Of a stretch of DNA of 64,000 nucleotides, positions 22,654 through 50,885 are shown one piece after another. Both the position numbers and the translations under genes were made by a program. Numbering within the stretch: the first letter of the stretch is position 1; every line of letters begins with the position of its first letter. The notes beneath the pieces are model-generated. The model did not search any database. It had not been told where the DNA came from and saw only the letters and a program-made list of their open reading frames with translations. Source of the DNA: Candidatus Poribacteria bacterium (GTDB taxonomy: Bacteria; Poribacteria; WGA-4E; WGA-3G); assembly GCA_965198235.1 (NCBI GenBank), contig OZ240248.1, forward strand, positions 3,328,001 through 3,392,000. The letters are read 5' to 3'.

Positions 22654-22847
22654 TTTTGATGATTGAATCTGAGCCTTGTTCCACTACGTTCCATAACGCC
22701 TCTATCTAAATTGAAAACCTGCTTTAGGTTTGAAAAGGTTCATAACTTCACCGTAAACCACTGCGGAATGAAATTAGGTTTCCTTAAATGGCATAATTTG
22801 TCTTTGCTTTACATTTGGAGCAGTGACCAGAGGCAATAGTTTAAAAA
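22654..22847. repeat. family-A bipartite palindromic element with cargo
   Basis: Degenerate minus-strand hairpin 22674-22698; plus-strand cargo hairpin 22759-22825; ends TTTAAAAA before the gcvT ATG. Confidence 0.8.
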
Positions 22848-23933
22848 ATGAAGCGAACGCCCCTTTATGAGGTACACAAAAGCCTCAATGCTAAATTCAC
22901 CGAATTCGGCGGTTGGGAGATGCCCCTTCAGTATAGCAGCATTGTTAAGGAACATTTGGCTGTCCGGAGCATCGCCGGTTTGTTTGACCTGTCACATATG
23001 GGAGAGGTTGAAGTTTCTGGACAGGGGGCGAACGAATTGGTGCAGAAACTCAGCACGAATGATGTGAGTCGTTTAAGCAATGGACGTGTGTTGTATACAC
23101 TATTCTGCAATGAAACAGGCGGAATCGTTGACGACCTACTCGTTTATCGACATGCGGATAATCACTATATGTTGGTAGTCAACGCCGCCAATATTGAGAA
23201 AGATCTGGCGTGGGTGGAGACCTGTAACGATGCAGGTGCAGAAGTAAAAGACATATCCGAGGACACGGCTCTCATTGCCCTGCAGGGTCCAAAGGCAATA
23301 GACCTTCTGAATCCTTTCGTTCCTGAACGAGATGTCTCCGAGATTCCGTATTTTCGATTTACAGCCGGTGAAGTCGCTGGGGTCCCTACCGCTATTTCAC
23401 GTACGGGTTATACGGGGGAAGTTGGCTTTGAGTTATACGTCCCTGCGGCGGATGCCGAACGTTTGTGGACTGCTCTGTATCCTGCCGTCATGGCAGTAGG
23501 AGGACAACCGGTGGGGCTTGGTGCGCGCGACACCTTACGTCTTGAAGCCGGACTTCGCCTCTACGGCATGGACATGAGCGACGACACGAACCCGTTTGAA
23601 GTTGGGCTGGGTCGGTTCGTCAAATTTAAGAATCGACAATTTATCGGCAAAAGTGCACTCCTTGCAGAGAAAAAGAAGGGCATCACGAAACAGATGATTG
23701 GATTTCAGATGCTTGACCGTGCTGTAGCACGTGCTGGTTATGCTATTTATCAAGGCGGTGAACGCATTGGTAGTGTGACCAGCGGTGCCCCTTCGCCGAG
23801 TCTTAAATGTAGTATCGGTTTCGCTTCTGTTGAATCACAAGCGGTGTCTGAAAATGAAAAAATTGATGTAGAAATTCGAGGTAAATTGCACCCCGCTATA
23901 ATTGTGGAGGTGCCTTTTATTTCAAATTTCTAA
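22848..23933 (+). CDS. gcvT: glycine cleavage aminomethyltransferase T
   Basis: KRTPLY, FDLSHMG, SRTGYTGE, GLGARDTLRLEAG. Confidence 0.97.
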   Translation: MKRTPLYEVHKSLNAKFTEFGGWEMPLQYSSIVKEHLAVRSIAGLFDLSHMGEVEVSGQGANELVQKLSTNDVSRLSNGRVLYTLFCNETGGIVDDLLVYRHADNHYMLVVNAANIEKDLAWVETCNDAGAEVKDISEDTALIALQGPKAIDLLNPFVPERDVSEIPYFRFTAGEVAGVPTAISRTGYTGEVGFELYVPAADAERLWTALYPAVMAVGGQPVGLGARDTLRLEAGLRLYGMDMSDDTNPFEVGLGRFVKFKNRQFIGKSALLAEKKKGITKQMIGFQMLDRAVARAGYAIYQGGERIGSVTSGAPSPSLKCSIGFASVESQAVSENEKIDVEIRGKLHPAIIVEVPFISNF

Positions 23934-24159
23934 CGACGGGCCTCTGGACTGCTCTCCACTACGTTTCGAGTAGGTTTCTGGTGAAGTTAGTTACAGCGGA
24001 TAAAGGAATTGCAAGGTTTTTTGTGTATCGCACGTGCCTTTTTAGGGGTGAACACGCGTCTCACCAGATACCATCGTGGAACGAAATTATGTTTCCTTAA
24101 ATGGCATAATTTGTCTTTGCTTTACATTTGGAACGATGACCAGATTTCACAGTTAGAAA
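23927..24159. repeat. family-A element with cargo
   Basis: TTTCTAAC..GTTAGAAA ends; hairpins 23949-23973(-) and 24072-24138(+); inner IR GGTTTCTGGTGA/TCACCAGATACC. Confidence 0.85.
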
Positions 24160-24172
24160 AAGAGAACATAAA

Positions 24173-24559
24173 ATGATTCCACAAGACTTAAGATACATGG
24201 AAAGCCATGAATGGATCAAACAAGAGGGAGACATCGCTACTATTGGTATCAGCGATTATGCCCAATCCGAAATTCAGGATATTGTCTATGTTGAATTGCC
24301 CGAAGTTGGCACTGAACTCACACAGAAAACGGAGTTCGGTGTGATAGAGTCTGTCAAGGCGGCATTCGATCTCTATGCTCCTGTCAGCGGTGAGGTCATT
24401 GAGGTCAACGAATCGCTTCTCGACGCACCGGAACAGGTGAATGAGTCTCCGTACAATGAAGGTTGGTTCCTCAGAATCAGAATGACTGACACTAACGAAC
24501 TTGACGCACTTCTTGATGCCGATGATTATCAGGCGCATATTGAGGCGGAGCATGCTTGA
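24173..24559 (+). CDS. gcvH: glycine cleavage H protein
   Basis: SHEW, ESVKAA lipoyl lysine, PYNEGW. Confidence 0.97.
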
Positions 24560-27407
24560 AAAACAGAAAAACGGAAGATCCTTCGCAAATCGACACATCG
24601 GTCCTCGTCCAGAAGATGTTGAATGGATGTTGTCAACGCTCGGCTATTCTTCAATGACTGATTTCATTGAAGATGTTGTGCCAGCGGATATTCGTTTATC
24701 CTCCGCTTTCAGTTTAAATGGAGATGTGTGTGGGCTTTCAGAGTCGGAGGTGCTTGCCGCACTCAAGAAACTTGCTTCCCAAAACCAAGTCTTTCGCTCT
24801 TTTATTGGAATGGGATACTATAATTGCTTTGTTCCGCCAGTCATCCAACGAAACATTTTGGAAAATCCCGGTTGGTACACCCAATACACACCCTATCAAG
24901 CCGAGATTTCACAGGGACGTTTGGAGGCATTGCTTAACTTCCAAACAATGGTGATTGATTTAACCGGTTTACCTGTCGCGAATGCTTCTCTCTTAGATGA
25001 GGCAACAGCCGCCGCCGAGGCGATGGGGATGTGCCTCACCCTTACAAAACAGAAAACATGCCGCGATTTTTTCGTTTCTGAAACCTGTCATCCACAAACT
25101 ATCGCTGTTTTGCAGACGCGTGCTGAGCCTCTCGGCATTCGATTGGTTATTGGGGACCATAGAAATACGGACTTTGACGCGCCAATTCTCGGTGCTATCG
25201 CACAATACCCCGCAACTGATGGCGCGATTTACGATTACAGCGAATTTGGGGAACGAGTGCATGCCGCTGGCGGTTTGTTCATTACTGCCACAGATCTGTT
25301 AGCACTGACCCTTTTACGTCCACCTGGCGAGTTTGGAGCAGACATTGCTATCGGTAGTGCACAGCGATTCGGGGTTCCGCTCGGTTATGGCGGTCCGCAC
25401 GCTGCCTTCCTCGCTACCCGTGAGCAACTAAAGCGACAGATACCCGGAAGGATTGCGGGTGTTTCTCAAGATGCGACCGGCAAACCGGCTATCCGCTTGG
25501 CACTCCAAACGCGGGAGCAGCATATCCGACGTGAAAAAGCAACGAGTAACATTTGCACCGCGCAGGTACTACTCGCTGTGATGGCAGGGATGTATGCGGT
25601 TTATCATGGACCCACAGGACTTAAGCACATCGCTGAACGCATCCACTCACTCACTTGCACATTACGTGCAGGGCTTGGAGAACTTGGGTTTACAACGGGG
25701 AAATTGCCCTGTTTTGACACTCTCTCTGTTGGTGTGCCGTTGGGAACAACGGAGGAGTTGCTCGACTCTGCCCGTGCAAAACAAATAAACCTTCGGGCAA
25801 CTAATTCAACGCATATCGGTATCTCTTTAGACGAAACAACGACATTGGTCGATGTTGAAGAAATCTTGCAAGTATTTGGTGCGCGAACAAGTTTGGAAAG
25901 CGTACCTGCAAGTGACATTCCTATAGATTTGCAACGGAAGAGTTCCTACCTAATGCATCCGGTGTTCAATAGTTACCATTCTGAAACCGAGATGCTTCGC
26001 TATATCCACAAGCTTCAAACCAAAGATCTTTCCCTTGTGAATGCCATGATACCTCTCGGTTCTTGTACCATGAAACTCAATGCTACGGCGGAGATGGTCC
26101 CAGTAACATGGAACGAGTTTGGCGGACTGCACCCCTTCGCGCCGCGAGAGCAAGCAAAAGGGTATCAGCATCTGTTTTCACAATTAGAAACGTGGTTAGC
26201 TGAGATAACGGGTTATAGTGGTATCTCATTGCAACCGAATGCGGGTTCACAAGGTGAATATGCAGGACTGTTAGTCGTCCGAAAATACCACCAGAGCCGC
26301 GGTGAGTCACATCGTGATGTTTGTTTAATACCAACATCTGCTCACGGCACAAATCCTGCAAGTGCTGTGATGGCAGGTATGCAAGTTGTCGTCGTCGCGT
26401 GCGATACGGATGGGAATATTGACCTCGAAGATCTGGAATTAAAAGCTGACAAGCATCGTGAAGATCTTGCCGCTGCCATGATTACATACCCTTCAACACA
26501 TGGGGTCTTTGAAGAGAAAATTCGAGAGATTTGCGATATTGTTCATCAATCCGGTGGACAGGTCTACATGGACGGTGCGAATCTGAATGCCCTTGTTGGA
26601 ATCGGGCAGCCAGCAGATATTGGAGCGGATGTATGCCATTTGAATCTCCACAAAACTTTCTGTATCCCTCACGGTGGGGGTGGACCGGGAATGGGACCCA
26701 TTGGGGTTAAGGCGCATCTCACAGACTTCTTGCCAACACATCCACTTGTCCCTGTCGGTGGTGATGCTGGAATTGGTGCCGTGTCTGCTGCCCCGTGGGG
26801 AAGCCCAGGAATTCTGCCCATCTCATGGGCATATATTGCGATGATGGGAACGCAGGGGCTTACAGCCGCGACAGAAGTTGCGATCCTGAACGCGAACTAT
26901 ATTGCCAAACGGCTCGCGCCTCATTATCCTGTCCTTTATACGGGAAAAAACGGCTTAGTTGCTCACGAATGTATCATTGATTTGCGTGCATTCAAGAAGA
27001 ATACCGATATAGATGTGACCGATATCGCAAAGCGACTGATGGACTACGGGTTCCACGCACCGACTGTTTCTTGGCCCGTACTGGGGACGATGATGATTGA
27101 ACCGACAGAAAGCGAATCGAGGGCGGAGTTAGAGCGGTTCTGTGATGCTCTCATTTCAATACGTGAAGAGATAGCGGAGATTGAGACGGGTGTCGCTGAT
27201 CAGGTAGACAATGTGTTGAAGAATGCTCCGCACACCGTGGAAATGGTTACACGATCTGAATGGAGTCATTCGTATTCGCGTGAAAGAGCCGCGTTTCCGA
27301 AACCTTGGGTCCGCGAGGCTAAATTTTGGCCCGCAGTCGCACGTATCAACGAGGTTTACGGAGATAGGAATCTTTTGTGTGCCTGCCCACCGCTTGATAA
27401 ATATTAA
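24552..27407 (+). CDS. gcvP: glycine dehydrogenase (single-chain P protein)
   Basis: [31 protein letters not shown]; start trimmed. Confidence 0.97.
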
Positions 27408-27551
27408 TTTCAGTGACGCGAATTCCGTGTTCATAGCACGTAGCACGAACTGTATGAAGTTTAAGAATTTAATTGGGTGACTACCGACATCACCTTTGGG
27501 AAAAGGAATGGCAGGTCTACGGTAGAAGACGGTACAATTTACAGAAATGGT

Positions 27552-27697
27552 TGTCCAGTCTAATTGGGACATCCGTATTCGCTTAAGAAAGCGTACATGG
27601 CTCAGACCCCGTTGACTTAAGCGAAAACCACCGTGAAACGAAATTATGCCCTAAATGGCATAATTTGTTTTTGCTTTACATTTGGAACGGTTTAAGC
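27552..27697. repeat. family-A element with cargo (variant left hairpin)
   Basis: Inner IR TTCGCTTAAG/CTTAAGCGAA; cargo hairpin 27630-27691. Confidence 0.75.
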
Positions 27698-27734
27698 ATC
27701 AACTCGACTCCGCTATAAATGTTAAAGCACGAGT

Positions 27735-27808
27735 GTTTTTGCTTGGGGTTTTTGCTTGGGTGTTTCTGCGGATTTCTTCGATGGTTAACAGATTTAATAA
27801 TTAAAAAT
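27735..27808 (+). repeat. family-B fragment
   Basis: TTTTTGCTTGGG x2, TGTTTCTGCGGATTTCTTC, AATTAAAAAT-ATG as at 42151-42285. Confidence 0.7.
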
Positions 27809-29215
27809 ATGAAAGCAATAATTATAGGCGCAGGAGAAATTGGGTTCCATATTGCCAAACTTCTCACTGTCCAAGATAACGATGTTGTTCTCATTGATGA
27901 GTCCGATGCTGCCTGCGACCGGGTTAATGAACAATTGGACTTGCAAACGCTGCACGGATCGGGGGCATCCCCGCGCCTTCTCAAAACCGCTGGGATTGAC
28001 GAAGCCGACCTCATCATCGCCGTTACAAATAGTGATGAGATTAATATCCTCGCTTGTCAGATAGCCGGTAGGTACGGTGTCAACACAAAAATCGCACGTG
28101 TCTCAAATCCTGACTACTTCTCCACGGAAAGTGGACTCACTCCTAAAGACTTCGGTATTGATCTTCTGGTGAATCCAGAACAGCGCTGTGTTGCTGAATT
28201 TGTCCGGCTCTTGCATATACCTGAGGCGCGGGAGATTGTCGAATTTGAAGACGGAAAAGTCCAACTTGTTTCCTTTCGTGCCAAACAGTCAAACCCCTTG
28301 ATAGGAAAATCGCTCGCGGAATTGGACGCAAGTGGGCTTCTCGCTGATATCCGCTTCGCTGCCATTAGTCGTCGTGGAGGTTCCAATAACGGCAACCCGA
28401 TCAGTAATGGCGGCAGACACATTATCATTCCGAGAGGGGCGGATGCTTTGCAACAAGGGGACGAAGTCTTTGTCATCGGCAGTGCGTTGGCAGTTGAGCA
28501 ATTGTTACGTATTAGTGGTATCACATTTAATCAGCAGCTGGACCGCGTTATCATTGTTGGCGCAAGCCCTATTGGCATTGGACTCGCCCGTGTGCTTGAA
28601 GAAAACGACACCAACGTCAAACTCATCGAAGCCGATCAAACACAAGCGCGACTGGCATCCCAAATGCTAAAGCGCACCACCGTTTTACAGGGCGATTATC
28701 TCCAATTCAGACTCCTTGAAGAAGCAGGTATAGAGGGTGTTAACGGATTCGTCTCGGTTACGGGGGACGATGAGAACGATATTATGGCATGTATGACTGC
28801 CAAAGAGAACGGTGCCCAGCGTGTACTCGCACTCGTTCAGCGACCACGTTATCTCCCCTTGTTGGCACGCATTCCGAGACTCGATGGCGCGGTCAGCCGA
28901 CATCTCACTGTTGTTAGCAATATCCTGCGGCTCATCCGTCGTGGAAATATAGTTTCTGTTGCCTCACTGCACGGAATAGATGCGGAAGTTATTGAGATTG
29001 TCGCTGGAGTCAACGCGAAGATTGTCCACAAGGAACTTATCTCTTTCAAAACAAAATTTCCAGAAAATGCCTTTATCGGTGCCGTCATTCGGCGGGAAAA
29101 ACTCATTATTCCAACCGGTCAGTCTGTTATCCAACCTGCAGATCGCGTTATCGTCTTTAGTATGCCCGATGCGATTCCTATTGTCGAAGACCTGTTCGCC
29201 GAACGCCGCATCTAA
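27809..29215 (+). CDS. trkA: Trk K+ uptake NAD-binding subunit
   Basis: IIIGAGEIG, AVTNSDEIN, two RCK pairs; start trimmed. Confidence 0.95.
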   Translation: MKAIIIGAGEIGFHIAKLLTVQDNDVVLIDESDAACDRVNEQLDLQTLHGSGASPRLLKTAGIDEADLIIAVTNSDEINILACQIAGRYGVNTKIARVSNPDYFSTESGLTPKDFGIDLLVNPEQRCVAEFVRLLHIPEAREIVEFEDGKVQLVSFRAKQSNPLIGKSLAELDASGLLADIRFAAISRRGGSNNGNPISNGGRHIIIPRGADALQQGDEVFVIGSALAVEQLLRISGITFNQQLDRVIIVGASPIGIGLARVLEENDTNVKLIEADQTQARLASQMLKRTTVLQGDYLQFRLLEEAGIEGVNGFVSVTGDDENDIMACMTAKENGAQRVLALVQRPRYLPLLARIPRLDGAVSRHLTVVSNILRLIRRGNIVSVASLHGIDAEVIEIVAGVNAKIVHKELISFKTKFPENAFIGAVIRREKLIIPTGQSVIQPADRVIVFSMPDAIPIVEDLFAERRI

Positions 29216-30751: not shown

Positions 30752-30762
30752 ACCGTCCGCGG

Positions 30763-30869
30763 TTTTTCTAATTTTACCTTGCGGATAAGTGATGTGGTCT
30801 GCAATTTGAAAGTTTTTGATTTCGAGTTGAAGAAACACCCAAGCAAAAATCCCTCCACTACGTTACGGG
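30763..30869 (-). repeat. family-B element, reverse orientation
   Basis: Reverse complement CCCGTAACGTAGTGGAGGG-ATTTTTGCTTGGGTGTTTCT...CCGCAAGGTAAAATTAGAAAAA. Confidence 0.75.
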
Positions 30870-30912
30870 CATGCGGTTCGATTTTAAGAAGGATGTTCAG
30901 AATATTCAAAAA

Positions 30913-30962
30913 CCTGCGCGTAATGTAATGGAGCACAGGGCGAAAACCCAATAATTAAAAAA
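30913..30962 (+). repeat. family-A right arm
   Basis: CCTGCGC-GTAATGTAATGGA-GCACAGG then AAAACCCAATAATTAAAA. Confidence 0.7.
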
Positions 30963-31000
30963 ATGTAATGGAGCGTATCCCAGGAGACCATAGTAAAAAA

Positions 31001-40146: not shown

Positions 40147-41334
40147 ATGGAAAATTTCCCTCTCGTTTTAATCATCAGTTCAATCGTCAAGATTCTCATC
40201 ATTGTCCATCTGCTGCTTATTGGTGTGATGATAATGATCTGGGCAGAACGACGGGTGAGCGGATGGATGCAGGATCGGTTGGGACCTAACCGGGTTGGAC
40301 CACAAGGACTGCTCCAACCTGTTGCAGATGGGCTTAAGTTCCTGTTTAAAGAGGATCTCATCCCGGATCACGTAGATAAGCCGCTTTATGTGCTTGCGCC
40401 AGCAATGCTGTTAGTCCCGGCACTTGTTACGGTTGCAGTCGTGCCATTTGGGAGTTCTATTACGGTATTTGGGCATGAAATACCGCTCCAGATTGCAGAT
40501 ATCAATATCGGTATTCTGTATGTTTTGGCGATAACATCCCTCGGAGTCTACGGGGTTGTGCTCGGCGCATGGGCATCCAATAACAAGTACTCACTTTTGG
40601 GTGGTTTACGTTCATCTGCGCAGATGATTAGTTACGAGCTAACACTCGGATTGGCAATCATCGGTGTGCTGATGCTAACGAGTTCTCTCAGCCTTCGTGA
40701 GATCGCAAAGGTACAAGGCGGATATCCGTGGCAGTGGAATTTCCTGATTCACTTCCCCGCATTTCTGGCGTTTACAACAGCAATGTTTGCAGAAACCAAC
40801 CGATTGCCCTTTGACCTCGCTGAAGCGGAGCAGGAACTTGTTGCAGGGTATCATACCGAATACAGTAGTATGAAGTTCGCGATGTTTTTCATGGCAGAAT
40901 ACATGAACATGATTGTCGGCTCTGCCGTAACAGTGACGCTCTTCTTAGGAGGATGGCATTTCTTCGGTTTAGAAAATGTCGGTGGTCCCGTCTGGAGTGG
41001 GCTTATCTCGTTCGGTATCTTTTTTGTCAAAACAGCAATTTTCCTGTTCGTGTTTATCTGGGTTCGATGGACATTTCCTCGGTTCCGTTATGACCAACTC
41101 ATGAACTTAGGTTGGAAATTCCTATTGCCTGTCGCCTTGACTTCAATCGTCGTGACCGGCACTCTATGGATAACGACCAGCTCTCGCCTGATCGTGGGTA
41201 TCGGCAATGTGGTTTCCGCGTTTATTGTTGTATCTATTGTGGCTGGACTCCTTGTGATGAAGACACCTAAGCCAGCAATCCAGGATAGCGATATGCTTCG
41301 CAGTGAGAACTCACACCAACCGTTTTTTAAATAA
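40147..41334 (+). CDS. nuoH: complex I subunit H
   Basis: GPNRVG, ETNRLPFDLAEAEQELVAGYHTEYS, PRFRYDQL. Confidence 0.97.
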   Translation: MENFPLVLIISSIVKILIIVHLLLIGVMIMIWAERRVSGWMQDRLGPNRVGPQGLLQPVADGLKFLFKEDLIPDHVDKPLYVLAPAMLLVPALVTVAVVPFGSSITVFGHEIPLQIADINIGILYVLAITSLGVYGVVLGAWASNNKYSLLGGLRSSAQMISYELTLGLAIIGVLMLTSSLSLREIAKVQGGYPWQWNFLIHFPAFLAFTTAMFAETNRLPFDLAEAEQELVAGYHTEYSSMKFAMFFMAEYMNMIVGSAVTVTLFLGGWHFFGLENVGGPVWSGLISFGIFFVKTAIFLFVFIWVRWTFPRFRYDQLMNLGWKFLLPVALTSIVVTGTLWITTSSRLIVGIGNVVSAFIVVSIVAGLLVMKTPKPAIQDSDMLRSENSHQPFFK

Positions 41335-41546
41335 TTGGACTCCTAGGCCGCCCTCCATTACATTTCGGGCAAGTTTCAGGTCAATTTCAACGGAGTTGGA
41401 GACAAGTAAGATTCTTAAACATTTCATAACCCAGGAGGAGTTAGAATTCACCGGAAACCACCGCGTAATGAAATTATGCCTTAAATGGCATAATTTGTCT
41501 TTGCTTTACATTTGGAGCGGTGCTCAGGTTGCTAATCGTTAAAAAA
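41323..41546. repeat. family-A element with cargo
   Basis: Hairpins 41350-41370(-) and 41459-41522(+); TTTTTTAA/TTAAAAAA ends. Confidence 0.85.
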
Positions 41547-42074
41547 ATGAATGCAGAACAGATTCTATTTATTCTCTTTGGAGCGGTCTCGCTGATTGGC
41601 GCGATTGCTGTAATTTCGTTTCGACATCCGATTTATAGCGCGCTTTCGCTTATTGTAACGTTTTTCGCACAAGCAGGGCTTTTTGTCCTGCTGGGCGCAC
41701 ATTTCGTTGCGGCTGTTCAAGTAATTGTCTATGCCGGCGCGATTATGGTCCTGTTCCTCTTTGTGATTATGCTCCTGAACTTGGGTACACTCTCGGCGAA
41801 AGGGGCTATTGGGGGGAAACTGAAGGGATTCGCTATAATCTTAGGCATTCTCTTTGCCGCCGAAGGCATCTATATCGCAGTGAATGCGCTCAACGACACC
41901 GCAGTGGCATCGGCAGAATCCACGGCGGCAGCGGTAACGACAACCACTTATGACATTGGCGAACTCTTGTTCAGCAAGTACCTCTTACCGTTTGAGGTTA
42001 CTTCGCTTATTTTGTTGGCGGCATTGATTGGCGTTATCGTCTTGGTAAAACGCGAAGGTCAAGAAGAAAACTAA
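41547..42074 (+). CDS. nuoJ: complex I subunit J
   Basis: QVIVYAGAIMVLFLFVIMLL, PFEVTS. Confidence 0.96.
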   Translation: MNAEQILFILFGAVSLIGAIAVISFRHPIYSALSLIVTFFAQAGLFVLLGAHFVAAVQVIVYAGAIMVLFLFVIMLLNLGTLSAKGAIGGKLKGFAIILGILFAAEGIYIAVNALNDTAVASAESTAAAVTTTTYDIGELLFSKYLLPFEVTSLILLAALIGVIVLVKREGQEEN

Positions 42075-42075
42075 A

Positions 42076-42285
42076 GTCAGTAATCAGCAGTCAGTAGGTG
42101 AGGTGTTTATCTTCATAGCATCAAAGACGTAGCCTGTAATGTAATGGAAGGGTTTTTGCTTGGGGTCTTTGATAGGGGTTTTTGATAGGGTGTTTCTGCG
42201 GATTTCTGCGGATTTCTTCAGATTTACGCTAGGGAATGTCAAAGTCCTAAAGCCACTTGACCGAACCGCAAGGAAAATTAAAAAT
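42076..42285 (+). repeat. family-C remnant plus family-B element
   Basis: TCAGCAGTCAG; GTAG-CCT-GTAATGTAATGGA-AGG; TTTTTGCTTGGG; CCGCAAGGAAAATTAAAAAT-ATG. Confidence 0.8.
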
Positions 42286-42585
42286 ATGTCATTAGAGTAT
42301 TATCTCATTTTGAGCGCGCTCTTGTTTACAACGGGAGTCATCGGGGTCCTTATCCGCAGGAACGCTATCATCATCTTTATGTGTATTGAACTGATGCTAA
42401 ATGCGGCGAATCTCGCCTTTGTAGCTATCAGTCGTAGTCTCGGTGAGGCAACGGGCCAGGTGTTCGTTTTCTTTGTGATGACTGTCGCTGCCGCCGAGGT
42501 CGCGATTGGGCTCGCAATTATTGTGAGCGTCTTCAAACATCGACAGACAGTTAATGTGGATGAAGTTAATTCCTTGAAGGGCTAA
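42286..42585 (+). CDS. nuoK: complex I subunit K
   Basis: [17 protein letters not shown]; start trimmed. Confidence 0.96.
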
Positions 42586-42783
42586 TTTCTAATTATTGGG
42601 TTTTTGCTCTGCTCTCCACTTCGTTTCGAGCAGGTTTTTGGTCAGGTTGCAGCGTGTTTGAGAATCTGTGCAATGTTCACAAAACGCTTTAAGAAATCCG
42701 ACAAGTGCCCAGTGCCGCCGTAAATTAACCGAAAACCATCGTGAAACGAAGTGGAACGATGAGCAAAAACTTAATAGTTAAAA
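42586..42783. repeat. family-A element without cargo (cleanest copy)
   Basis: Outer IR AATTATTGGGTTTTTGCTC/GAGCAAAAACTTAATAGTT; hairpins 42609-42633(-) and 42737-42761(+). Confidence 0.9.
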
Positions 42784-42794
42784 GGGTTTAAAAA

Positions 42795-44684
42795 ATGTCA
42801 CTTGAACTCATTAGTGTTCTGTTAGTTGCCCCGCTTGTTGGGTTTCTGATTAACGGGTTGTTAGGAAAATGGCTAAAAGGTAACGAGCAACTGAGTGGAT
42901 GGATAGGTTCGCTTGCAGTGCTTGTTTCTTTAGTCTGTTCGATTATCGCTTTTGCCAGTTTGCACGGCGGTGCTGCCCCGTTCGATGAAACGCTGTATGA
43001 ATGGATTACAGGCGAGTCGTTCGCTTTCAATATCGGGTTCCGTGTGGACGCACTAACGTCAGTGATGTTGTTGGTGATTACAGGTGTTGGGTTTCTCATC
43101 CACGTCTATTCGATCGGCTACATGCATGGCGATGCAGGATATACACGCTATTTTGCCTATCTGAATCTGTTCATCTTTGCGATGCTAATCTTGGTCCTCG
43201 GAAACAACTATCTGATGATGTTCGTCGGATGGGAAGGGGTTGGACTCTGCTCATATCTCCTCATAGGATTCTGGTATGAGAAGCAAACGGCGACAGATGC
43301 TGGAAAAAAAGCGTTTATCGTGAACCGAATCGGTGATTTCGGGTTTCTGCTGGGGATGTTTACTCTGTTTGCTGCTTTCGGAACTCTCGATTTCGCATCG
43401 ATATTTGATGCCGCTGAGGCAGATAATTTTCAGAAAGTCTTTGGTGCCAGTACCCTCGTAATTGCGACCTTGTTACTTTTCGTTGGCGCGATAGGTAAAT
43501 CGGCACAAATTCCGCTCTATGTATGGCTCCCGGACGCAATGGAAGGTCCCACCCCTGTCAGTGCCTTGATTCACGCCGCTACAATGGTGACGGCGGGCGT
43601 ATATATGATAGCACGCTCCGCTGTGCTTTATAATATAGCACATACCGGCGAAGTGGTCGCTTGGATCGGCGTTTTGACTGCCTTCTTCGCTGCAACGATA
43701 GCACTTACCCAGAACGATATTAAACGCATCCTCGCTTATTCCACTGTGAGCCAACTCGGGTATATGTTCCTTGGTGTTGGTGTTGGTGCTTATGCATCTG
43801 GCATTTTCCATTTAGTAACGCATGCCTTCTTTAAAGGACTGATGTTCCTTACCGCTGGTAGTGTGATGCACGCAATGGCAAATGAATTGGATGTGCGGAA
43901 GATGGGCGGCTTAAAGGCAAAGATGCCGATAACGCACTGGACCTTTTTAGTAGGTGCCCTTGCTATTGCCGGGTTTCCGTTTCTGAGTGGTTTCTGGAGC
44001 AAAGATGAAATCTTGCACAGTGCGTGGGGGAGTTCACCTATTATTTACGTCATCGGTTTAGTCACGGCGTTCTTGACGGCGTTTTATATGTTCCGCTTGA
44101 TCTTTGTGACGTTTTATGGTGAATCTCGTGTTGAATCCGAAGTTGCTTCGCATCTGCACGAATCGCCACCGGTCATGTGGGTGCCGTTGGCAATTCTGGC
44201 GATCCCTTCTGCCTTAATCGGTTTGCTGTTGGGGTGGGGTGGACATGACAGTTGGTTCCACCACTTCACGAAGAGTGTTTTTCCAGAGGCACACCATGAG
44301 GCATCGGGTAATGTGATCTTATTTATGGTGATTTCATCGGTTGTGGGTTTGGCAGGGATTGCGTTCGCGTGGTCGCGCTATCGCGAAAGGACACCGTCTG
44401 ACGAACCTACCAATGCACTACATAAGCTTCTTGCGAACAAGTACTATGTTGATGAGGTATATAACGCACTCATCGTGCAACCGATTAAAAACGGTTCTCA
44501 CTACCTACTCTGGCGGATTATAGATAACGGTATTATTGATGGGATTGTCAACGGTGTCGGGTCTATTATTCGATTTATTGGTGGAACGTTGCGCCGCCTC
44601 CAGACAGGACTTGTCCAAGTGTACATTGTATCAATGGTTCTCGGAATTGTGTTATTCCTCGCATACTATCTGTTTTTTACTTAA
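42795..44684 (+). CDS. nuoL: complex I subunit L
   Basis: GKSAQIPL, WLPDAMEGPTPVSALIHAATM, HAFFK. Confidence 0.97.
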   Translation: MSLELISVLLVAPLVGFLINGLLGKWLKGNEQLSGWIGSLAVLVSLVCSIIAFASLHGGAAPFDETLYEWITGESFAFNIGFRVDALTSVMLLVITGVGFLIHVYSIGYMHGDAGYTRYFAYLNLFIFAMLILVLGNNYLMMFVGWEGVGLCSYLLIGFWYEKQTATDAGKKAFIVNRIGDFGFLLGMFTLFAAFGTLDFASIFDAAEADNFQKVFGASTLVIATLLLFVGAIGKSAQIPLYVWLPDAMEGPTPVSALIHAATMVTAGVYMIARSAVLYNIAHTGEVVAWIGVLTAFFAATIALTQNDIKRILAYSTVSQLGYMFLGVGVGAYASGIFHLVTHAFFKGLMFLTAGSVMHAMANELDVRKMGGLKAKMPITHWTFLVGALAIAGFPFLSGFWSKDEILHSAWGSSPIIYVIGLVTAFLTAFYMFRLIFVTFYGESRVESEVASHLHESPPVMWVPLAILAIPSALIGLLLGWGGHDSWFHHFTKSVFPEAHHEASGNVILFMVISSVVGLAGIAFAWSRYRERTPSDEPTNALHKLLANKYYVDEVYNALIVQPIKNGSHYLLWRIIDNGIIDGIVNGVGSIIRFIGGTLRRLQTGLVQVYIVSMVLGIVLFLAYYLFFT

Positions 44685-44790
44685 TTTTTAACTATGGACC
44701 TATGGGCACCGTTCCACTTCGTTACACGGTGGTTTACGGAGAAGTAGAGAGCCTGCTTTAGGTTTAGAAAGGTTTCTGACCTTACCGATT
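44685..44790 (-). repeat. family-A left arm
   Basis: Minus-strand CACCGT-GTAACGAAGTGGA-ACGGTG at 44707-44731; CCTGCTTTAGGTTT spacer shared with ~22720. Confidence 0.75.
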
Positions 44791-44970: not shown

Positions 44971-46629
44971 TTGTTACTTTCAATAGTCATTTTTTTACCA
45001 CTGCTCGGTGTGATAGCGATTGCCTTGCTCAGAGGACTCGGTGCCTCCGCTGTCAAAGGCATCGCGCTTGTCATTGGGCTCCTAACTTTTATTGTCTCAT
45101 TGGGGCTTTACACCGGGTTTGACACAACGACTGCAACGTTCCAAAATGTCGCGCAGCAAGAGTGGATTCCCGGTTTAGGTACAAGTTACCACATCGGCAT
45201 TGATGGTATTTCGCTATGGTTAGTGTTGCTTACAACTTTCCTGACACCGGTGTGTATCCTCGCCGCATGGAATTCGGTCGAGAAAGGGCTAAGCGGTTTT
45301 ATGATGTCGCTCCTCGCTCTTGAGACCGGGATGTTGGGTGTCTTCTGTGCTTTGGATCTGTTCCTCTTTTTTGTATTTTGGGAGTCGATGCTAATTCCGA
45401 TGTACTTCCTCATCGGTATTTGGGGTGGAGAACGTCGAATTTATGCAACCGTGAAGTTCGTTCTTTATACAATGGCGGGCAGTGCGCTAATGCTGGTTGG
45501 CATCTTGGTGCTGTACTTCCAAAACAACAATAGTTTCGATCTCACGACGCTTAGCGGTCCGTTTGAACATTCACATCTATTGTTCTTGGCGTTTTTCATT
45601 GCATTTGCGATTAAGGTTCCGCTCTTTCCGTTCCATACTTGGCTACCAGATGCCCACGTTGAAGCCCCCACGGTGGGAAGTGTAATCCTTGCCGGAGTAC
45701 TGCTAAAGATGGGAACCTATGGGATAATCCGATTTTGCCTACCACTCTTTCCCGATGCAGCGGCTGAATTTACTCCGTTGATAGTGCCACTCGCTGTAAT
45801 TGGCATCATTTACGGCGCATTGGTGGCGATGGTCCAACCAGATCTGAAAAAACTGGTCGCATATTCCAGTGTGAGTCACCTCGGTTTTGTAGTGTTGGGG
45901 TTGTTTTCAAAAAATCCCGCTGGTATTCAAGGAAGCGTCTTACAAATGATTAATCACGGTTTAAGCACAGGCGCGTTGTTCCTTTTGGTCGGAATGATTT
46001 ATGAGCGACGACACAGCAGGATGATTGTAGATTTCGGTGGCTTGGCGAAGCGAATGCCGATCTTTGCTACAATTTTTATGATTGTGACATTATCATCAAT
46101 TGGGCTACCGGGTTTGAATGGATTCGTTGGTGAATATATGATACTGTTTGGCAGTTTTGTTCAGGGAGCCTTCTCGAAGATATATGTAGTTTTGGCAACA
46201 GCAGGTGTGATTCTGGCAGCTGTATATATGCTGTGGATGTTCCAACGGGTGATGTTTGGGACACTGGATAAGACAAATGAAGCTTTGCCTGACTTGAACG
46301 CACGTGAGATCGTTGTGATGCTTCCGATACTGCTGTTCATCGTCTGGATCGGCGTTTATCCGAAACCTTTCCTGAGTAAGATGGAGAAATCAGTAGGACT
46401 TGTCGTGACGCAGGTACAAACTGAACCTGCTATGGGGCGCGCGGGAGAACAGGAGAATAGCAGTCAGCAGTCAGTGGTCAGCAGTCAGCAAGACGGAGAC
46501 ACTTTAATAAAAAACCTCTTTCCTGATAGCCGACAGCCGATGGCTGATAGCCAATATACCGAACTCGCTCTACACGGGACACAGCGCGCCCAGCATGAAA
46601 AGATTGAAAAGGAGGCAGAGACGAAGTAA
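44971..46629 (+). CDS. nuoM: complex I subunit M
   Basis: WLPDAHVEAP, LKMG, YSSVSHLG; TTG start after GGAGG. Confidence 0.96.
   Translation: MLLSIVIFLPLLGVIAIALLRGLGASAVKGIALVIGLLTFIVSLGLYTGFDTTTATFQNVAQQEWIPGLGTSYHIGIDGISLWLVLLTTFLTPVCILAAWNSVEKGLSGFMMSLLALETGMLGVFCALDLFLFFVFWESMLIPMYFLIGIWGGERRIYATVKFVLYTMAGSALMLVGILVLYFQNNNSFDLTTLSGPFEHSHLLFLAFFIAFAIKVPLFPFHTWLPDAHVEAPTVGSVILAGVLLKMGTYGIIRFCLPLFPDAAAEFTPLIVPLAVIGIIYGALVAMVQPDLKKLVAYSSVSHLGFVVLGLFSKNPAGIQGSVLQMINHGLSTGALFLLVGMIYERRHSRMIVDFGGLAKRMPIFATIFMIVTLSSIGLPGLNGFVGEYMILFGSFVQGAFSKIYVVLATAGVILAAVYMLWMFQRVMFGTLDKTNEALPDLNAREIVVMLPILLFIVWIGVYPKPFLSKMEKSVGLVVTQVQTEPAMGRAGEQENSSQQSVVSSQQDGDTLIKNLFPDSRQPMADSQYTELALHGTQRAQHEKIEKEAETK
46457..46552. 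repeat. family-C element in frame inside the nuoM 3' end
   Basis: AGCAGTC-type heptamers ... CTGATAGCCGACAGCCGATGGCTGATAGCC. Confidence 0.75.
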
Positions 46630-48123
46630 TTGAAGTTTAAATTTACAACTTGTCTTATTCTTTGTGTGATTTTGGGGCTCGCGTTGTCAGTTTCAATGGG
46701 AGCCTTCGGAGCAGATGACGCACACGGTGACGAAGGCGCACACCACGGTCATGGGGTAGACGGGGCAAAATTGCCTATTTGGAGTATCATACCATTTGTT
46801 GGTATATTACTCTCTATTGCGATTTTCCCACTTGTGTTGGATTCCCATTTTCTTGTCCACCACGGCGGAAAAATGTCATTGATATGGGCGTTAGTCTTCG
46901 CAATCCCGTACCTTGTAGCATTTCGAGGAGAAGCCTTTTACGACATTCTGCATATTTATCTGATAGACTATATCCCGTTCATTATTCTGTTGTGGGGGTT
47001 GTTCACGGTTGCGGGTGGGATTCTCGTGCGTGGGACATTGCGTGGCACGCCGATAGTTAACACACTCTTACTACTTATCGGCACTGCTATCGCCTCATGG
47101 GTAGGCACAACAGGCGCATCAATGCTCCTCATCCGCCCGCTAATTCGAGCAAACGCGTATCGGCAGAACAAGATCCATCTGATTATCTTCTTCATCTTTC
47201 TCGTGAGTAACATCGGTGGTTCTTTGACACCGTTGGGTGATCCACCACTCTTTTTGGGGTTCTTGCACGGAGTGCCTTTCTTCTGGACAACAACGGCGCT
47301 CTTCCCACACATGCTGTTTATTAGCATCATCTTAATTGTGCTTTTCTTTGTAGTAGACACAGTCTTTTTCAAACGGGAAGGCGGTGTAGTTCCAGATGAT
47401 GGTACCAGTGAACCTATTCGTGTAAGTGGACTGTTTAACCTAATCTTCCTGCTCGGAATTGTCGCCGCTGTCCTGATGAGCGGTACCGCGAAATGGGGAG
47501 AGGTCAACATCCTCGGTGTGCATGTGACCTGGCAGAATATCGCTCGTGATGTGTTGATTGTCGTCATGGGGCTGTTATCCCTCAGGTTTACACCCTTTAG
47601 TGGTGAGTTGCGTCAAGCGAATGAGTTTTCATGGGAGCCGATTGAAGAGGTGGCAAAAGTGTTCGCCGGTATCTTTATGACCATTGTTCCAGCGTTGGCG
47701 ATTCTGAAAGCCGGTGAAAACGGCGAGTTACGTGGGTTAATTGGGGCGATAAAAGAACCATTGCACTATTTCTGGGTAACTGGAGTTCTGTCGAGTTTCT
47801 TAGATAATGCTCCGACCTATTTGACGTTTTTCAACACAGCACTTGGCAAATTGCATCTCACTGAAGCCGTAGTACCGGAAATTTTGTCTGGACAGTTGAC
47901 AGGTGCCGAGCACTTAGAATTTGTGAACCTGCTAACTGCCATTTCTGTTGGGGCTGTTTTTATGGGGGCAAATACCTATATCGGCAATGCCCCGAACTTC
48001 ATGGTGAAGGCAATCGCAGAACAAAGCGGTATCCGCATGCCGAGTTTCTTTGGATATATGCTCTGGTCGATAGGGATTTTAGTCCCGCTCTTTGTGATTG
48101 TGACGTTAGTGTTCCTACGCTAA
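46630..48123 (+). CDS. IT-superfamily putative cation/H+ antiporter (CitMHS_2-like)
   Basis: SNIGGSLTPLGDPPLFLG, LDNAPTY, TYIGNAPNFMVK, many TM segments. Confidence 0.8.
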   Translation: MKFKFTTCLILCVILGLALSVSMGAFGADDAHGDEGAHHGHGVDGAKLPIWSIIPFVGILLSIAIFPLVLDSHFLVHHGGKMSLIWALVFAIPYLVAFRGEAFYDILHIYLIDYIPFIILLWGLFTVAGGILVRGTLRGTPIVNTLLLLIGTAIASWVGTTGASMLLIRPLIRANAYRQNKIHLIIFFIFLVSNIGGSLTPLGDPPLFLGFLHGVPFFWTTTALFPHMLFISIILIVLFFVVDTVFFKREGGVVPDDGTSEPIRVSGLFNLIFLLGIVAAVLMSGTAKWGEVNILGVHVTWQNIARDVLIVVMGLLSLRFTPFSGELRQANEFSWEPIEEVAKVFAGIFMTIVPALAILKAGENGELRGLIGAIKEPLHYFWVTGVLSSFLDNAPTYLTFFNTALGKLHLTEAVVPEILSGQLTGAEHLEFVNLLTAISVGAVFMGANTYIGNAPNFMVKAIAEQSGIRMPSFFGYMLWSIGILVPLFVIVTLVFLR

Positions 48124-48195
48124 GCCATTCAAGGTTATACTCAGCTACCACTGTACTCGGAAACTTGGACAGAAAACTATCAAAGGAGGTTTTGA

Positions 48196-49629
48196 ATGCC
48201 AATAGAGATTAACTGGCAATTACTGATGCCGGAGCTGATTATCGCTTTAACGCTACTCATCGTCCTCGTTTTTGACCTGTTTGACTCCATTTCAAAAGCA
48301 ATTCTCGGCTGGATGACGATCGTTGGTTCTGGGATTGCGCTATGGGTCTCCATCCAGATGCATCAAGCAGGCACAGTTGGCACCCAGTTCAACGAAATGT
48401 TCAAGGTGGATAATTTTTCCCTTTTCTTCAATACTGTTTTCCTTGTTTCGACGATTTTGGTCGCTTTGATTTCGATGAGCTATTTGGACAGGGACGACAG
48501 AAAGCAGGGACCTTACTACCTACTTATTCTGCTGGCGACCCTCGGTATGATGTTGATGGCTGCTGGCAATGAGTTGATTATTGTCTTCCTTGGCTTGGAA
48601 CTGATGTCATTATCGTTGTATGTGTTGGCAGGTTATTTTCGAGATAATCCTGCTTCAAGCGAGGCGGGCATGAAATACTTATTGCTCGGCGCGTTTGCAA
48701 GCGCGTTCTTCCTTTACGGGATCGCTCTGATTTACGGTGGTGCCGGAACGACGAGTGTCCCCGCAATTGCTGAGGCAATTACTGCTCCGAATAAATCGCC
48801 GCTGTTGTTAGCAGGAATGTTCCTTCTGATTGTTGGATTCGGATTTAAGGTCGCCATTGTTCCATTCCATCAATGGGCACCAGATGTTTACGAAGGCGCG
48901 CCCACAACGATAGCAGCGTTTATCTCTGCCGGACCAAAGGCGGCTGGGTTTGCGGCGTTCCTCAGAATTTTTATGGAAGCCCTACCAACCCTGCAAGTCG
49001 AATGGAGTGGTGTTATCATTGTATTGGCGATGTTAACGATGACAGTCGGAAATGTCATTGCGATCGCGCAGACAAACATCAAGCGGATGCTCGCTTATTC
49101 AAGTATTGCCCACGCAGGTTATGTCCTAATAGGCTTGGCGGCTGCAAATAATGACGGAATTTCGAGTGCGATGCTTTATCTGCTCGTTTACTGTGTGATG
49201 AACATCGGTGCGTTCGGTGCGGTCATCTTGGCAAAAACGGAGGATGGCGAGAGCCTTATGATTTCCGATTACGCAGGGCTTGGTCTCCGAAAGCCGTTAC
49301 TTGCTATGTTTATGACAATAATGCTTTTGTCACTCGCCGGTTTTCCGCCGACTGCTGGGTTCGTCGGAAAATTCTATATCTTCAAATCAGCAGTTCAGGC
49401 AGGGCATATCTGGCTCGTTATTGTGGGTGCCATCAACACAGCAATATCAGCATTCTACTACCTCCGAGTTGTTGTGACAATGTATATGCGTGAACCGGAA
49501 GAGGAGCTAACATTTACGTCGTACCCAAGTACCCTCGTAGTTGGGCTAATCCTCGCCGCGATTGGTGTGTTGCTTATCGGTATTCTGCCGTCGCTCATGC
49601 TGAATCCAGCACAGAATTCCGTTTTTTAA
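48196..49629 (+). CDS. nuoN: complex I subunit N
   Basis: SEAGMKY, PFHQWAPDVYEGAPT, KRMLAYSSI. Confidence 0.97.
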   Translation: MPIEINWQLLMPELIIALTLLIVLVFDLFDSISKAILGWMTIVGSGIALWVSIQMHQAGTVGTQFNEMFKVDNFSLFFNTVFLVSTILVALISMSYLDRDDRKQGPYYLLILLATLGMMLMAAGNELIIVFLGLELMSLSLYVLAGYFRDNPASSEAGMKYLLLGAFASAFFLYGIALIYGGAGTTSVPAIAEAITAPNKSPLLLAGMFLLIVGFGFKVAIVPFHQWAPDVYEGAPTTIAAFISAGPKAAGFAAFLRIFMEALPTLQVEWSGVIIVLAMLTMTVGNVIAIAQTNIKRMLAYSSIAHAGYVLIGLAAANNDGISSAMLYLLVYCVMNIGAFGAVILAKTEDGESLMISDYAGLGLRKPLLAMFMTIMLLSLAGFPPTAGFVGKFYIFKSAVQAGHIWLVIVGAINTAISAFYYLRVVVTMYMREPEEELTFTSYPSTLVVGLILAAIGVLLIGILPSLMLNPAQNSVF

Positions 49630-49798
49630 GCGATTAAGGTTGCTCGGTTTTGTCCGTTGTCCAAAACCGAATCCGTGATGAAAAGTGAGTTGTTGGGCAG
49701 GACCCCAATTATTGCACTTTTAATCACGAAACCAAGAATTAATAAACCATCCGTTTCTCGACAACGGAGAGAAACGAGCAAGGACAATAGCTTAAAAA
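49622..49798. repeat. bipartite element with GACAACGGA loops
   Basis: TTTTTAAGC..GCTTAAAAA ends; hairpins 49644-49670(-) and 49752-49776(+); central hairpin ~49674-49728. Confidence 0.85.
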
Positions 49799-50773
49799 AT
49801 GTCAGACATTAGGTTAGGCTTTATCGGCACGGGTGGCAACATGAATCGCCACTTGCGCGAGTTAACCGAGATTGGCGGTTCAACATTCGTCGCCTTCTGT
49901 GATATTGTAGTTGAGAAAGCGGAGCAGGCTGTCACACAGTATGGTGGTAAAGCCTACGCCGACTATAACCAGATGCTCGCGCACGAGGAATTGGATGCCG
50001 TTTATATCTCAATCCCACCTTTTGCCCACGGCGCGCCTGAGCGTGCTGTTGTTGCCGCCGGACTACCGATGTTTGTGGAAAAACCTGTCCACATGGATGC
50101 CGATGAGGCGAAAGACATCGCAGCGGAAGTAGAAGAAAAGGGCATCATCACCGCTACCGGGTATCAGGAACGTTATCTTGACATCATCGACAAAGCGCAG
50201 GAACTCCTCGCTTCCCGACGTGTCGGATTCTTCATGGGCTACTGGATGGGCGGCATGCCCGGCCCCGGCAGTTGGTGGCGAGAAAAGGCAAAATCTGGTG
50301 GACAACTCATGGAGCAGACGACACACGAATTTGATATGGCGAGATACCTCTTCGGCGAGGTTAAAACTGTCTATGCCGTCGCACGCTATGATCTGATTCC
50401 CGATACCGATTACGATATTGAGGAAGCGTCTGCGGTCTCTTTGCAATTTGAGAGTGGGGTCTTTGGTATTATGTTCTCCGCCTGCTTCACAACAAATGGG
50501 ATGAGTCGTTCTGGATTGGACATTTTCTGTGAGGACGGTTCTCTTGAATACCATCTCCGTAGTGCGCTCGTACTCTCTACTGCTGAAGAGACGACCACGT
50601 GGAATCCGCAAAATAATTGCACGATTGATATGGATAGCACTTTTATTGAAGCAGTTCGCACAGGCGATGGCAGTGCGATCCGATCACCCTATTCGGATGC
50701 CGCCAAAACCGCAATTTTGTCAATCGCTGCCAACGAATCTCTTGAAACGGGTCTACCTGTCCACTTAGGCTAA
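49799..50773 (+). CDS. Gfo/Idh/MocA oxidoreductase
   Basis: GFIGTG, FVEKPV, GGQLMEQTTH. Confidence 0.9.
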   Translation: MSDIRLGFIGTGGNMNRHLRELTEIGGSTFVAFCDIVVEKAEQAVTQYGGKAYADYNQMLAHEELDAVYISIPPFAHGAPERAVVAAGLPMFVEKPVHMDADEAKDIAAEVEEKGIITATGYQERYLDIIDKAQELLASRRVGFFMGYWMGGMPGPGSWWREKAKSGGQLMEQTTHEFDMARYLFGEVKTVYAVARYDLIPDTDYDIEEASAVSLQFESGVFGIMFSACFTTNGMSRSGLDIFCEDGSLEYHLRSALVLSTAEETTTWNPQNNCTIDMDSTFIEAVRTGDGSAIRSPYSDAAKTAILSIAANESLETGLPVHLG

Positions 50774-50789
50774 AGACGGTTGGAATTAA

Positions 50790-50885
50790 CTGAGAACGCT
50801 GCGAAATGAAATTAGGTTTCCTTAAATGGCATAATTTGTCTTTGCCTTACATTTGGAGCAGTGCCCAGAATTAATCGTTTAGAAA
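50790..50885 (+). repeat. family-A right arm with cargo
   Basis: Cargo hairpin 50797-50863, ends TTAGAAA-ATG. Confidence 0.8.

Follow-up and report, generated by a model that had tools for sequence, protein, structure and literature searches.

REP-like hairpin repeats with a fixed loop and covarying stems at gene borders in one genus of Candidatus Poribacteria

A repeat conserved in shape

A dispersed palindromic repeat was analyzed in a stretch of 64 kb of Candidatus Poribacteria DNA (C1:3328001-3392000, referred to as the window) and in the 5.17-Mb genome of two contigs, C1 and C2, to which it belongs. Its core is a hairpin with a fixed loop whose stem differs from copy to copy while remaining paired. 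With modest confidence, the repeats are interpreted as genus-restricted, non-autonomous palindromic DNA elements that resemble repetitive extragenic palindromes (REPs) and bacterial interspersed mosaic elements (BIMEs), with traits of paired REP hairpins (REPINs) and of miniature transposable elements with inverted repeats (MITEs). They would be constrained in the form of the folded hairpin and spread by a putative factor, and their ends would have been co-opted by the host. The elements come and go between species at orthologous sites, taking the place of the native spacer. Element ends fall on gene borders: the TAA within the terminal TTAA is the stop codon of the incoming gene, and an A-rich tail abuts the ATG of the outgoing one.

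Loop conservation and stem covariation

The hairpin comprises 25 nt, with a variable 6-bp stem around a fixed 13-nt loop of the form G-N-A-A-Y-G-W-A-R-T-G-G-A. The purine-rich loop folds into a 3x3 G/A internal loop, a 2-bp mini-stem (A-Y with R-T) and a GWA triloop. Readings of the loop as a K-turn, loop E or UAA/GAN motif were considered and not adopted; a symmetric 3x3 loop would not fit a K-turn. The exact loop is present in 369 genome copies, and about 439 hairpins (372 short, 67 long) are found when forms with a longer loop are included. Within the window, the loop pattern with at most one mismatch is matched 10 times against 1.29 expected, a number reached by none of 100 shuffles.

Among the 369 exact loops, the six flanking positions on each side are fully paired in 194 copies, paired at 5/6 in 49, at 4/6 in 96 and at three or fewer in 30. 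Genome-wide, 64 distinct stems occur. The mini-stem is variable as well, being C-G in 228, T-A in 135 and unpaired in 6 of these loops. Loop position 2 was tallied in the 219 hairpins that have perfect stems and invariant positions 1, 3, 4 and 11-13: 119 carry A, 52 carry T, 46 carry G and only 2 carry C.

Covariation was evaluated on 83 distinct hairpins preselected for at least 5/6 stem pairing, which inflates the percentage of paired cells (94.9% versus 67.8% in shuffles) but not the diversity of pair types. Changes on both sides occur in seven of the eight base pairs, and double-change cells number 208 compared to 76.5 after shuffling. The covariation score of 0.783 is reached by none of 500 shuffles (0.276), and slid pairing partners score at most 0.257. 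An initial inspection of the window by eye of a model, the sequence-only reading, had described stems and mini-stem that covary around a fixed loop, and the larger set bears this out.

Loop sizes are discrete: 13 nt (215 hairpins with perfect stems), 52, 53, 55, 66 and 92-98 nt. The long loops are nested hairpins, which themselves show compensatory variants. A conserved insert of about 36-40 nt takes the place of the triloop region and is matched five times in the window (0 expected). It is nearly confined to hairpin loops: of its 88 occurrences, 76 are bordered by the two loop flanks and 86 by one or both. A search for split hairpins with arms up to 4 kb apart yielded only chance 9-nt matches beyond about 100 nt.

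Scaffolds and paired architecture

At least three repeat scaffolds, families A, B and C, carry the same hairpin. In family A it is embedded as ...TTAACCAGAAAC-hairpin-CCCAGGAGCCCATAGTTAAAAAA, and the unit of about 157 bp consists of an outer inverted repeat (IR), a hairpin, an inner IR, a centre, a second inner IR, a second hairpin and the outer IR. Outer and inner IRs are conserved, and the centre falls into several subfamilies. The outer IR of about 23 nt reads TTTTTTAACTATGGGCYCCTGGG, with conserved terminal inverted repeats TTTTTTAACTATGGG...CCCATAGTTAAAAAA. Genome-wide, 90 minus/plus pairs (about 180 hairpins, modal gap 60-62 bp) stand against 8 plus/minus pairs, in agreement with the dispersed, REPIN-like inverted-pair arrangement described by the sequence-only reading. 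Neighboring hairpins on the same strand number only 19, mostly family-B tandems, unlike IS200/IS605-type ends, in which both subterminal hairpins lie on one strand. The two hairpins of a family-A pair have identical stems in 0 of 90 cases, with a shuffled mean of 8.4 (P about 1e-4). Because of the inversion, a single 'sense' hairpin is found on either DNA strand, at a distance of 22-24 nt to the 3' end of that strand. The family-A stem is preceded by AC in 223 of 262 copies and has no GTAG or CGTC tag.

Family B is tagged at its 5' side (n=107; GTAG 56 and GCAG 13, together 69 GYAG, and ATAG 6) and has a 3' part of about 70 nt that ends in CCGCAAGGAAAATTAAAAAT; it sometimes forms 109-bp tandems. 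Family C corresponds to family B with the 3' arm exchanged for G/T-rich short repeats. Other loops are also hosted by the same scaffold, namely a bare GGA and a GACAACGGA family with covarying stems of its own. The presence of the hairpin in the GTAG-tagged family B, the nested-hairpin long loop and the position of the ends on start and stop codons go beyond the initial description.

Gene borders and transcription

Intergenic status is based on a crude call of open reading frames (ORFs), which make up 87% of the genome. On this basis, 375 of the 439 hairpins are intergenic. Outward from 358 family-A hairpins, the closest feature in 87 cases is where an outgoing ORF begins, 20-24 nt away, and in 100 cases it is the stop codon, 15-29 nt away, of an ORF that comes in; shifted control positions lack these distance peaks. 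Incoming stops within 5-34 nt are TAA in 99 of 131 cases. Start codons that face a tail are predominantly ATG (89/97) and lie at 22-24 nt in 81 of the 97. AGGAG-like words resembling a Shine-Dalgarno (SD) sequence are found in 55 of these 97 start-facing tails versus 71 of 261 other tails (Fisher 4e-7). The codon-exact ends and the SD-like enrichment are the reason why the tails are read as sequences that the host may have co-opted as 5' leaders.

Relative to co-directional flanking genes, family A has no preferred orientation (sense/antisense: solo short hairpins 58/51, paired short 45/54, paired long loops 14/13), which fits the DNA-level role suggested by the sequence-only reading. Family B is oriented with the downstream gene in 43 versus 8 cases. 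RNA-library data consist of four runs of assembled contigs that break at repeats, so that RNA ends, strand and level cannot be read from them and uncovered parts are uninformative. Contigs extend from the nuoJ and nuoK coding sequences into the elements, the nuoK contig reaching 42759. This is weak evidence for co-transcription of nuoJ and nuoK with the elements, as the contigs lack RNA ends and may derive from DNA carry-over.

The fixed spacing to start codons, the SD-like words and the RBS-like (ribosome-binding site-like) end of the oriented family B at the ATG would all suit a cis-acting mRNA module, acting as a 5' stabilizer or initiation helper or as a 3' protective hairpin, that is kept by transcript-level selection and spreads only secondarily. 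The family-B hairpin kept with compensatory changes at nuoJ-nuoK in several species points the same way, as do, weakly, the contigs that cross into the elements. As an account of the repeats this is nevertheless unlikely. Family A is equally sense and antisense, yet the purine-rich loop is kept on opposite strands of a pair, and these G-A pairs are not available to the complementary sequence. Rfam, where a match to a described family would have counted against the initial inspection, yields 0 matches at the gathering score in the window and 0 over 41300-42800 at E up to 1; RNA folding gives modest z-scores (-2.0 in the case of the short hairpin). In addition, AGGAG lies about 15 nt from the ATG, beyond the usual SD spacing.

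Turnover at orthologous sites

The sites of the window elements were compared among relatives of the same genus. Between nuoH and nuoJ, all 18 relatives have a 24-nt spacer with TAG and GGAGG and no element. The 224-bp element of the window stands in for about 31 nt that hold the last codons, the stop, the SD sequence and the spacer. The element between nuoK and nuoL is likewise absent from the same site in 18/18 relatives. At nuoJ-nuoK, a family-B element with short or long loops is found in about half of the relatives (9/18; loci L088-L091, L094-L096 and L099, partly L090). Comparison of L095 with L091 reveals two compensatory double changes in this hairpin, with stem and mini-stem affected in L095. 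As a separate observation, the C-terminus of NuoH (window 41290-41334) is unlike that of 18/18 relatives: the last residues (...T-V-F-stop), the stop codon and the ribosome-binding site are now element sequence.

Upstream of gcvT, some relatives have an empty site, TTTAAAAATG, one has the right half of the element only, and others have other elements. In one relative the long loop is located in the left hairpin; in the window, it is in the right one. The gcvT-gcvH site of relatives contains a short spacer or a different hairpin within the same scaffold. Five relatives compared over a 20-kb syntenic block differ in the repeats of almost all spacers, which are filled, empty or occupied by other repeats; one hairpin keeps its stem but is short-looped in one of the species and long-looped in a second. 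The nested expansions of 52-98 nt swap in and out at orthologous sites. A short loop is present at only 2 of 80 orthologous gcvT loci (78 Candidatus Poribacteria and 1 Ignavibacteriales among the 80). Absence of the family from the relatives was considered on this ground and rejected, since all 56 sampled genomes of the genus match the hairpin model described below; the turnover is site-specific.

An ordinary MITE would be double-stranded DNA moved by a DDE transposase on the 23-nt terminal IRs, with incidental hairpins whose pairing is kept by templated repair or gene conversion (bacterial MITEs are reviewed in PMC2229807 and PMC10969869). The conserved terminal repeats are consistent with it, and so are the gcvT junctions, where the filled site has TTTAAA on both sides of the element, compatible with a TTTAAA/TTAA duplication of the empty sequence. 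The genome encodes 6 IS630-type and 16 IS4/5-type transposases, and the exchange of short and long loops at one site resembles conversion rather than simple insertion. We regard this origin as quite unlikely. Neither the ends nor the hairpins bracket any gene of the transposase families searched in the genome. The duplication at gcvT is ambiguous because the target itself is palindromic and merges with the IR, and the change at nuoH-nuoJ is a replacement rather than a duplication. Furthermore, the asymmetric fixed loop is common to three unrelated scaffolds, C is avoided at loop position 2 and identical stems are avoided within pairs, which together indicate a constraint on the hairpin itself.

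Distribution in Poribacteria

A covariance model of the hairpin (R1), as proposed on the basis of the initial inspection, was run on a sample of 151 Poribacteria genomes. At most 49 candidates were scored per genome, and most members of the genus saturate, so that counts are lower bounds. Besides the strong covariation in the enlarged set, R1 matches 56/56 sampled genomes of the genus of the window. Low-copy members are G073 (1 match), G117 (4, weak), G016 (7), G124 (12) and G125 (20), and most of the other genomes have at least 45. The sister genus is represented by 38 genomes, of which 6 contain one or two matches each. The remaining phylum sample has matches only with E above 0.01. A scan for the exact 19-mer of the commonest hairpin variant, with one genome per species, returned at least 103 stretches; among the 80 matches listed, 73 are from Poribacteria, 3 from other metagenome-assembled genomes (MAGs) and 4 are single matches in other taxa, the latter being about chance level by a rough estimate.

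Y1 transposases and a different REP

REPIN-like pairs raise the question of REP-associated tyrosine transposases (RAYTs), the HUH enzymes to which the sequence-only reading had linked the repeat. The genome contains six Y1_Tnp genes, three IS605-like and three stand-alone genes of about 160 aa. One of the former (L001, C1 119838) is part of an IS605-type element with a TnpA of 139 aa and a TnpB-like ORF of 370 aa; the matches at 4381488 and 4792784 (L002-L003) belong to the same score class. All six pass the IS200/IS605 model and fail the RayT cut-off (stand-alone genes: 72 bits versus 55, and 28-31 versus 80 for RayT). Each stand-alone gene (L004:1000-2300, L005 and L006; C1 around 3853757, 606918 and 1898775) is flanked by a different REP, TTTTCTATAGACATAGCACYCC-N4-GGRGTG, which has an ATAG tag, covarying stems and 61 genome copies, including a 121-bp tandem array near 607373. 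This combination looks like the real REP-RAYT-like unit of the genome.

No family-A hairpin is located within 1.5 kb of a Y1 gene at any of 35 loci (6 from this genome and the 29 best from other genus members); a single family-B copy lies 1.4 kb from an IS605. Y1 genes are present in 56 of 61 genus genomes, and their number is uncoupled from that of the hairpins: G073 has five Y1 genes and one hairpin match, and G101 has 0 Y1 genes at E up to 1e-8 and 48 matches. G101 is a MAG of 94% completeness in 200 contigs, and its incompleteness weakens the Y1 absence.

In a strict REPIN-RAYT system, a domesticated Y1 HUH transposase would recognize the hairpin folded in single-stranded DNA and move the pairs as REPINs. 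Two inverted hairpins around a spacer are the layout of REPINs, Y1 genes including stand-alone ones are at hand, and the GTAG tag in 56 of 107 family-B copies equals the motif cleaved by the E. coli RAYT according to PMC3733652. Cross-recognition of family B is conceivable, given the ATAG tag of the Y1-flanking REP. Family A, in contrast, has no GTAG tag. Together with the empty Y1 neighborhoods, the separate REP of the stand-alone genes, their IS200/IS605-like scores and the uncoupled copy numbers, this makes such a system decidedly unlikely, and the proposed HUH RAYT link is not supported.

Copies in the window

The elements of the window are listed in Table 1. All hairpins named by the sequence-only reading are present, at or within a few bases of the positions given there (27630 becomes 27629 and 41350 becomes 41348), and the layout of IRs and hairpins described for the three complete copies is borne out. 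The count changes from 14 to 15, including two family-B/C hairpins, the degenerate core at 22680 and the remnant at 30960. As noted at the outset, the window holds no cognate enzyme.

Table 1 Hairpin elements in the window (window positions; strand as given, a dot for composite elements)
Feature	Position	Strand	Details
Composite element upstream of gcvT	22654..22847	.	Degenerate minus core 22680-22692; plus long-loop hairpin 22759-22825, CACTGC/GCAGTG; 22-nt tail ends at ATG of ORF starting 22848
Complete element gcvT-gcvH	23927..24159	.	Minus hairpin 23949-23973 and plus long-loop hairpin 24072-24138 (CATCGT/ACGATG), separated by the inner IRs with the spacer and bordered by the outer IR; gcvT stop TAA (23931-23933) within left terminal TTTCTAAC
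Solo long-loop hairpin	27629..27692	+	CACCGT/ACGGTT, 5/6 paired; followed by another palindromic repeat
Family B/C hairpin	30848..30872	-	Core 30854-30866; 3' arm exchanged for G/T-rich repeat
Family A hairpin with tail	30914..30962	+	Hairpin 30914-30938, CTGCGC/GCACAG; remnant at 30960-31000 next to it
Complete element nuoH-nuoJ	41323..41546	.	Minus hairpin 41348-41372; plus long-loop hairpin 41459-41522, CACCGC/GCGGTG; provides nuoH stop (41332-41334), ends at nuoJ ATG
Family B/C element nuoJ-nuoK	42124..42286	+	Hairpin 5' arm with GTAG tag, and loop (core 42136-42148); short tandem repeats rich in G/T; 3' part ends CCGCAAGGAAAATTAAAAAT ahead of ATG
Complete element nuoK-nuoL	42586..42783	.	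Short-loop hairpins 42609-42633 minus (CTGCTC/GAGCAG) and 42737-42761 plus (CATCGT/ACGATG)
Half element just past nuoL stop	44686..44731	-	Outer IR TTTTTAACTATGGACCTATGGG; hairpin 44707-44731, CACCGT/ACGGTG
Long-loop hairpin	50797..50885	+	Hairpin 50797-50863, CGCTGC/GCAGTG, 5/6 paired; 22-nt tail to ATG at 50886

Further repeats were encountered in the vicinity of the hairpins. The G/T-rich short tandem repeats (GGGGTTTTTGCTTGGG, GGTTTTTGATAGG, GTTTCTGCGGATTTCT) in the family-B 3' arm at 42150-42215 have 82 genome copies, and longer runs of G/T-rich tandem repeats are present at the site upstream of gcvT in relatives (L009). A palindromic repeat of about 55 nt, TTAACCATCAACTCGACTCCGTTATAAATGTTAAAGCACGAGTTGATGGTTAA-like, is located at 27693-27740 and at C1 1542217, 1598770 and 1269569; it adjoins hairpin arms and is at times nested within hairpin loops. 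The spacers of relatives (L097-L102, L139-L141; nuoJ-nuoK, nuoK-nuoL and others) contain a further palindrome family with a GTTATCAG-type and a CTGACAAC-type arm, for which a pattern search of the genome under study gave 0 matches. An identical element with its flank is found at C2:35442 and C1:810857. C2, the second contig of 43.9 kb, has several family-A hairpins; it may represent an extrachromosomal element, or else a segment that was duplicated or misassembled.

Discussion

The repeats are placed at the DNA level because of the orientation independence of family A, the purine-rich loop on opposite strands of each pair and the total avoidance of equal stems. Under the favored interpretation as REP/BIME-like elements, a protein specific for the structure and the loop would read the folded hairpin, either in single-stranded DNA or in a cruciform, which would explain why pairing and loop are kept while the stem sequence drifts. 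This protein would copy or move the elements and is probably none of the Y1 transposases of the genome.

Several results weigh against this interpretation. A mobilizing enzyme was not found in the genome among the families searched (Y1, GIY-YIG, IS110, IS630-type and IS4/5-type). No hairpin is located within 1.19 kb of the 4 GIY-YIG genes, which the sequence-only reading had suggested as possible partners, or of the IS630-type and IS4/5-type genes (nearest at least 1194 bp away), and no IS110 genes were found. An autonomous copy was not seen in the genome either: nine wide minus/plus pairs (400-4000 bp) enclose apparently unrelated ORF sets. The comparison of filled and empty sites, proposed at the outset, confirmed that elements come and go; it gave no clean target-site duplication or precise empty-filled pair at gcvT, nuoH-nuoJ or in the 20-kb block, where the spacers are too diverged, and nuoH-nuoJ shows a replacement of about 31 nt rather than a plain insertion. 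The best identity between elements of the genome has a median of 78% (one pair 100%, the next 93%). By this divergence the copies are old, which weakens the case for present-day mobility. The strong orientation of family B and the SD-like words in start-facing tails argue for RNA-level selection on at least part of the system. The cumulative GC skew of C1 rises to about +20,000 without returning to zero, shows no clear origin or terminus and could reflect strand composition or an assembly issue; gene strand has no replichore pattern. Both are uninformative on the lagging-strand bias that is typical of single-strand transposition. Finally, templated repair of quasi-palindromes, a mechanism from the literature, could keep the pairing instead of selection.

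A bolder variant takes the fixed loop as the cleavage or strand-transfer site of a putative structure-specific DNA enzyme, other than a Y1 RAYT and restricted to a single genus of Poribacteria. Extruded hairpins would be its substrate, the loop expansions of 52-98 nt its footprints, and the elements would be standard gene 'punctuation' that provides stop codons and ATG-abutting leaders to roughly a hundred genes in each genome. This proposal is doubtful.

Most of the apparently unusual features of the repeats have precedents, and the sequence-only reading overstated their novelty. As described by Di Nocera et al. (2013; PMC3733652), REP subfamilies show complementary changes in their stems, head-to-head and tail-to-tail (HH/TT) REP dimers occur 20-100 bp apart with a preference for heterodimers, stop codons can be supplied by REP ends, some REP dimers form part of a longer palindrome, and CGTC REPs have no transposase of their own. 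The string 'Poribacter' has 0 occurrences in the text of that survey, whose figures and additional files lie outside this statement and may list similar loops. Our literature search, with subscription journals and supplements outside its coverage, found no publication on these Poribacteria repeats, and loop strings appeared only in four unrelated papers.

The hairpin resembles REPs and BIMEs, which are imperfect palindromes of 20-40 bp with more than 100 copies in a genome, as a short extragenic palindrome of 25 nt in hundreds of mostly intergenic copies (about 439), with inverted dimers within the 20-100 bp spacing, complementary stem variants, heterodimers and stop-codon ends. With respect to the GTAG and CGTC superfamilies, family B has a GTAG/GYAG tag and family A has neither tag. 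Compared to such tagged REPs, the loop is here a conserved, structured 13-nt purine-rich motif with a covarying mini-stem, common to scaffolds with and without a tag; nested hairpins expand the loops to 52-98 nt, and scaffold ends abut the ATG at 22-24 nt. REPINs of Pseudomonas and Enterobacteria (PMC3116915, PMC3337134) similarly consist of two inverted hairpins with a spacer, number hundreds per genome and persist vertically, here within one genus. They differ in that no RAYT is flanked by the present repeats, and the spacer is longer and falls into several subfamilies. Because the stems of the two family-A arms are never the same, the pair, unlike a REPIN, is unable to zip up as a single long hairpin.

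Other known repeats are less close. Correia/NEMIS and ERIC MITEs share the size of about 100-200 bp, terminal IRs, intergenic position, co-transcription, an AT-rich target and effects on flanking genes; here, in contrast, no parent insertion sequence with matching ends was found among the families searched in the genome, and the ends hold a structure-conserved hairpin with a free stem. Mycobacterial interspersed repetitive units (MIRUs) are repeats of operon spacers whose ends overlap stop and start codons of flanking genes, but they are direct tandem units with small ORFs, whereas the Poribacteria elements are inverted hairpin pairs. Integron attC sites are imperfect palindromes of the form R''-L''...L'-R' that follow cassette ORFs near an integron integrase. 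Inverted pairs between ordinary operon genes are not a layout suggestive of such cassettes, a comparison made without an integrase search.

With these repeats, an uncultured phylum of sponge symbionts joins the organisms with large REP-like repeat populations. They are an unusually clean case of a hairpin kept by its shape and loop and not by its stem sequence, with 64 stems around one loop. If an enzyme reads this loop, it is probably of a kind not yet tied to REPs. In practice, the repeats break up Poribacteria assemblies and lead the calling of start codons astray. In each genome, about 100 genes begin 22-24 nt past a repeat hairpin, and their native ribosome-binding spacer is gone; should the tails drive translation, the elements would be mobile gene-junction cassettes.

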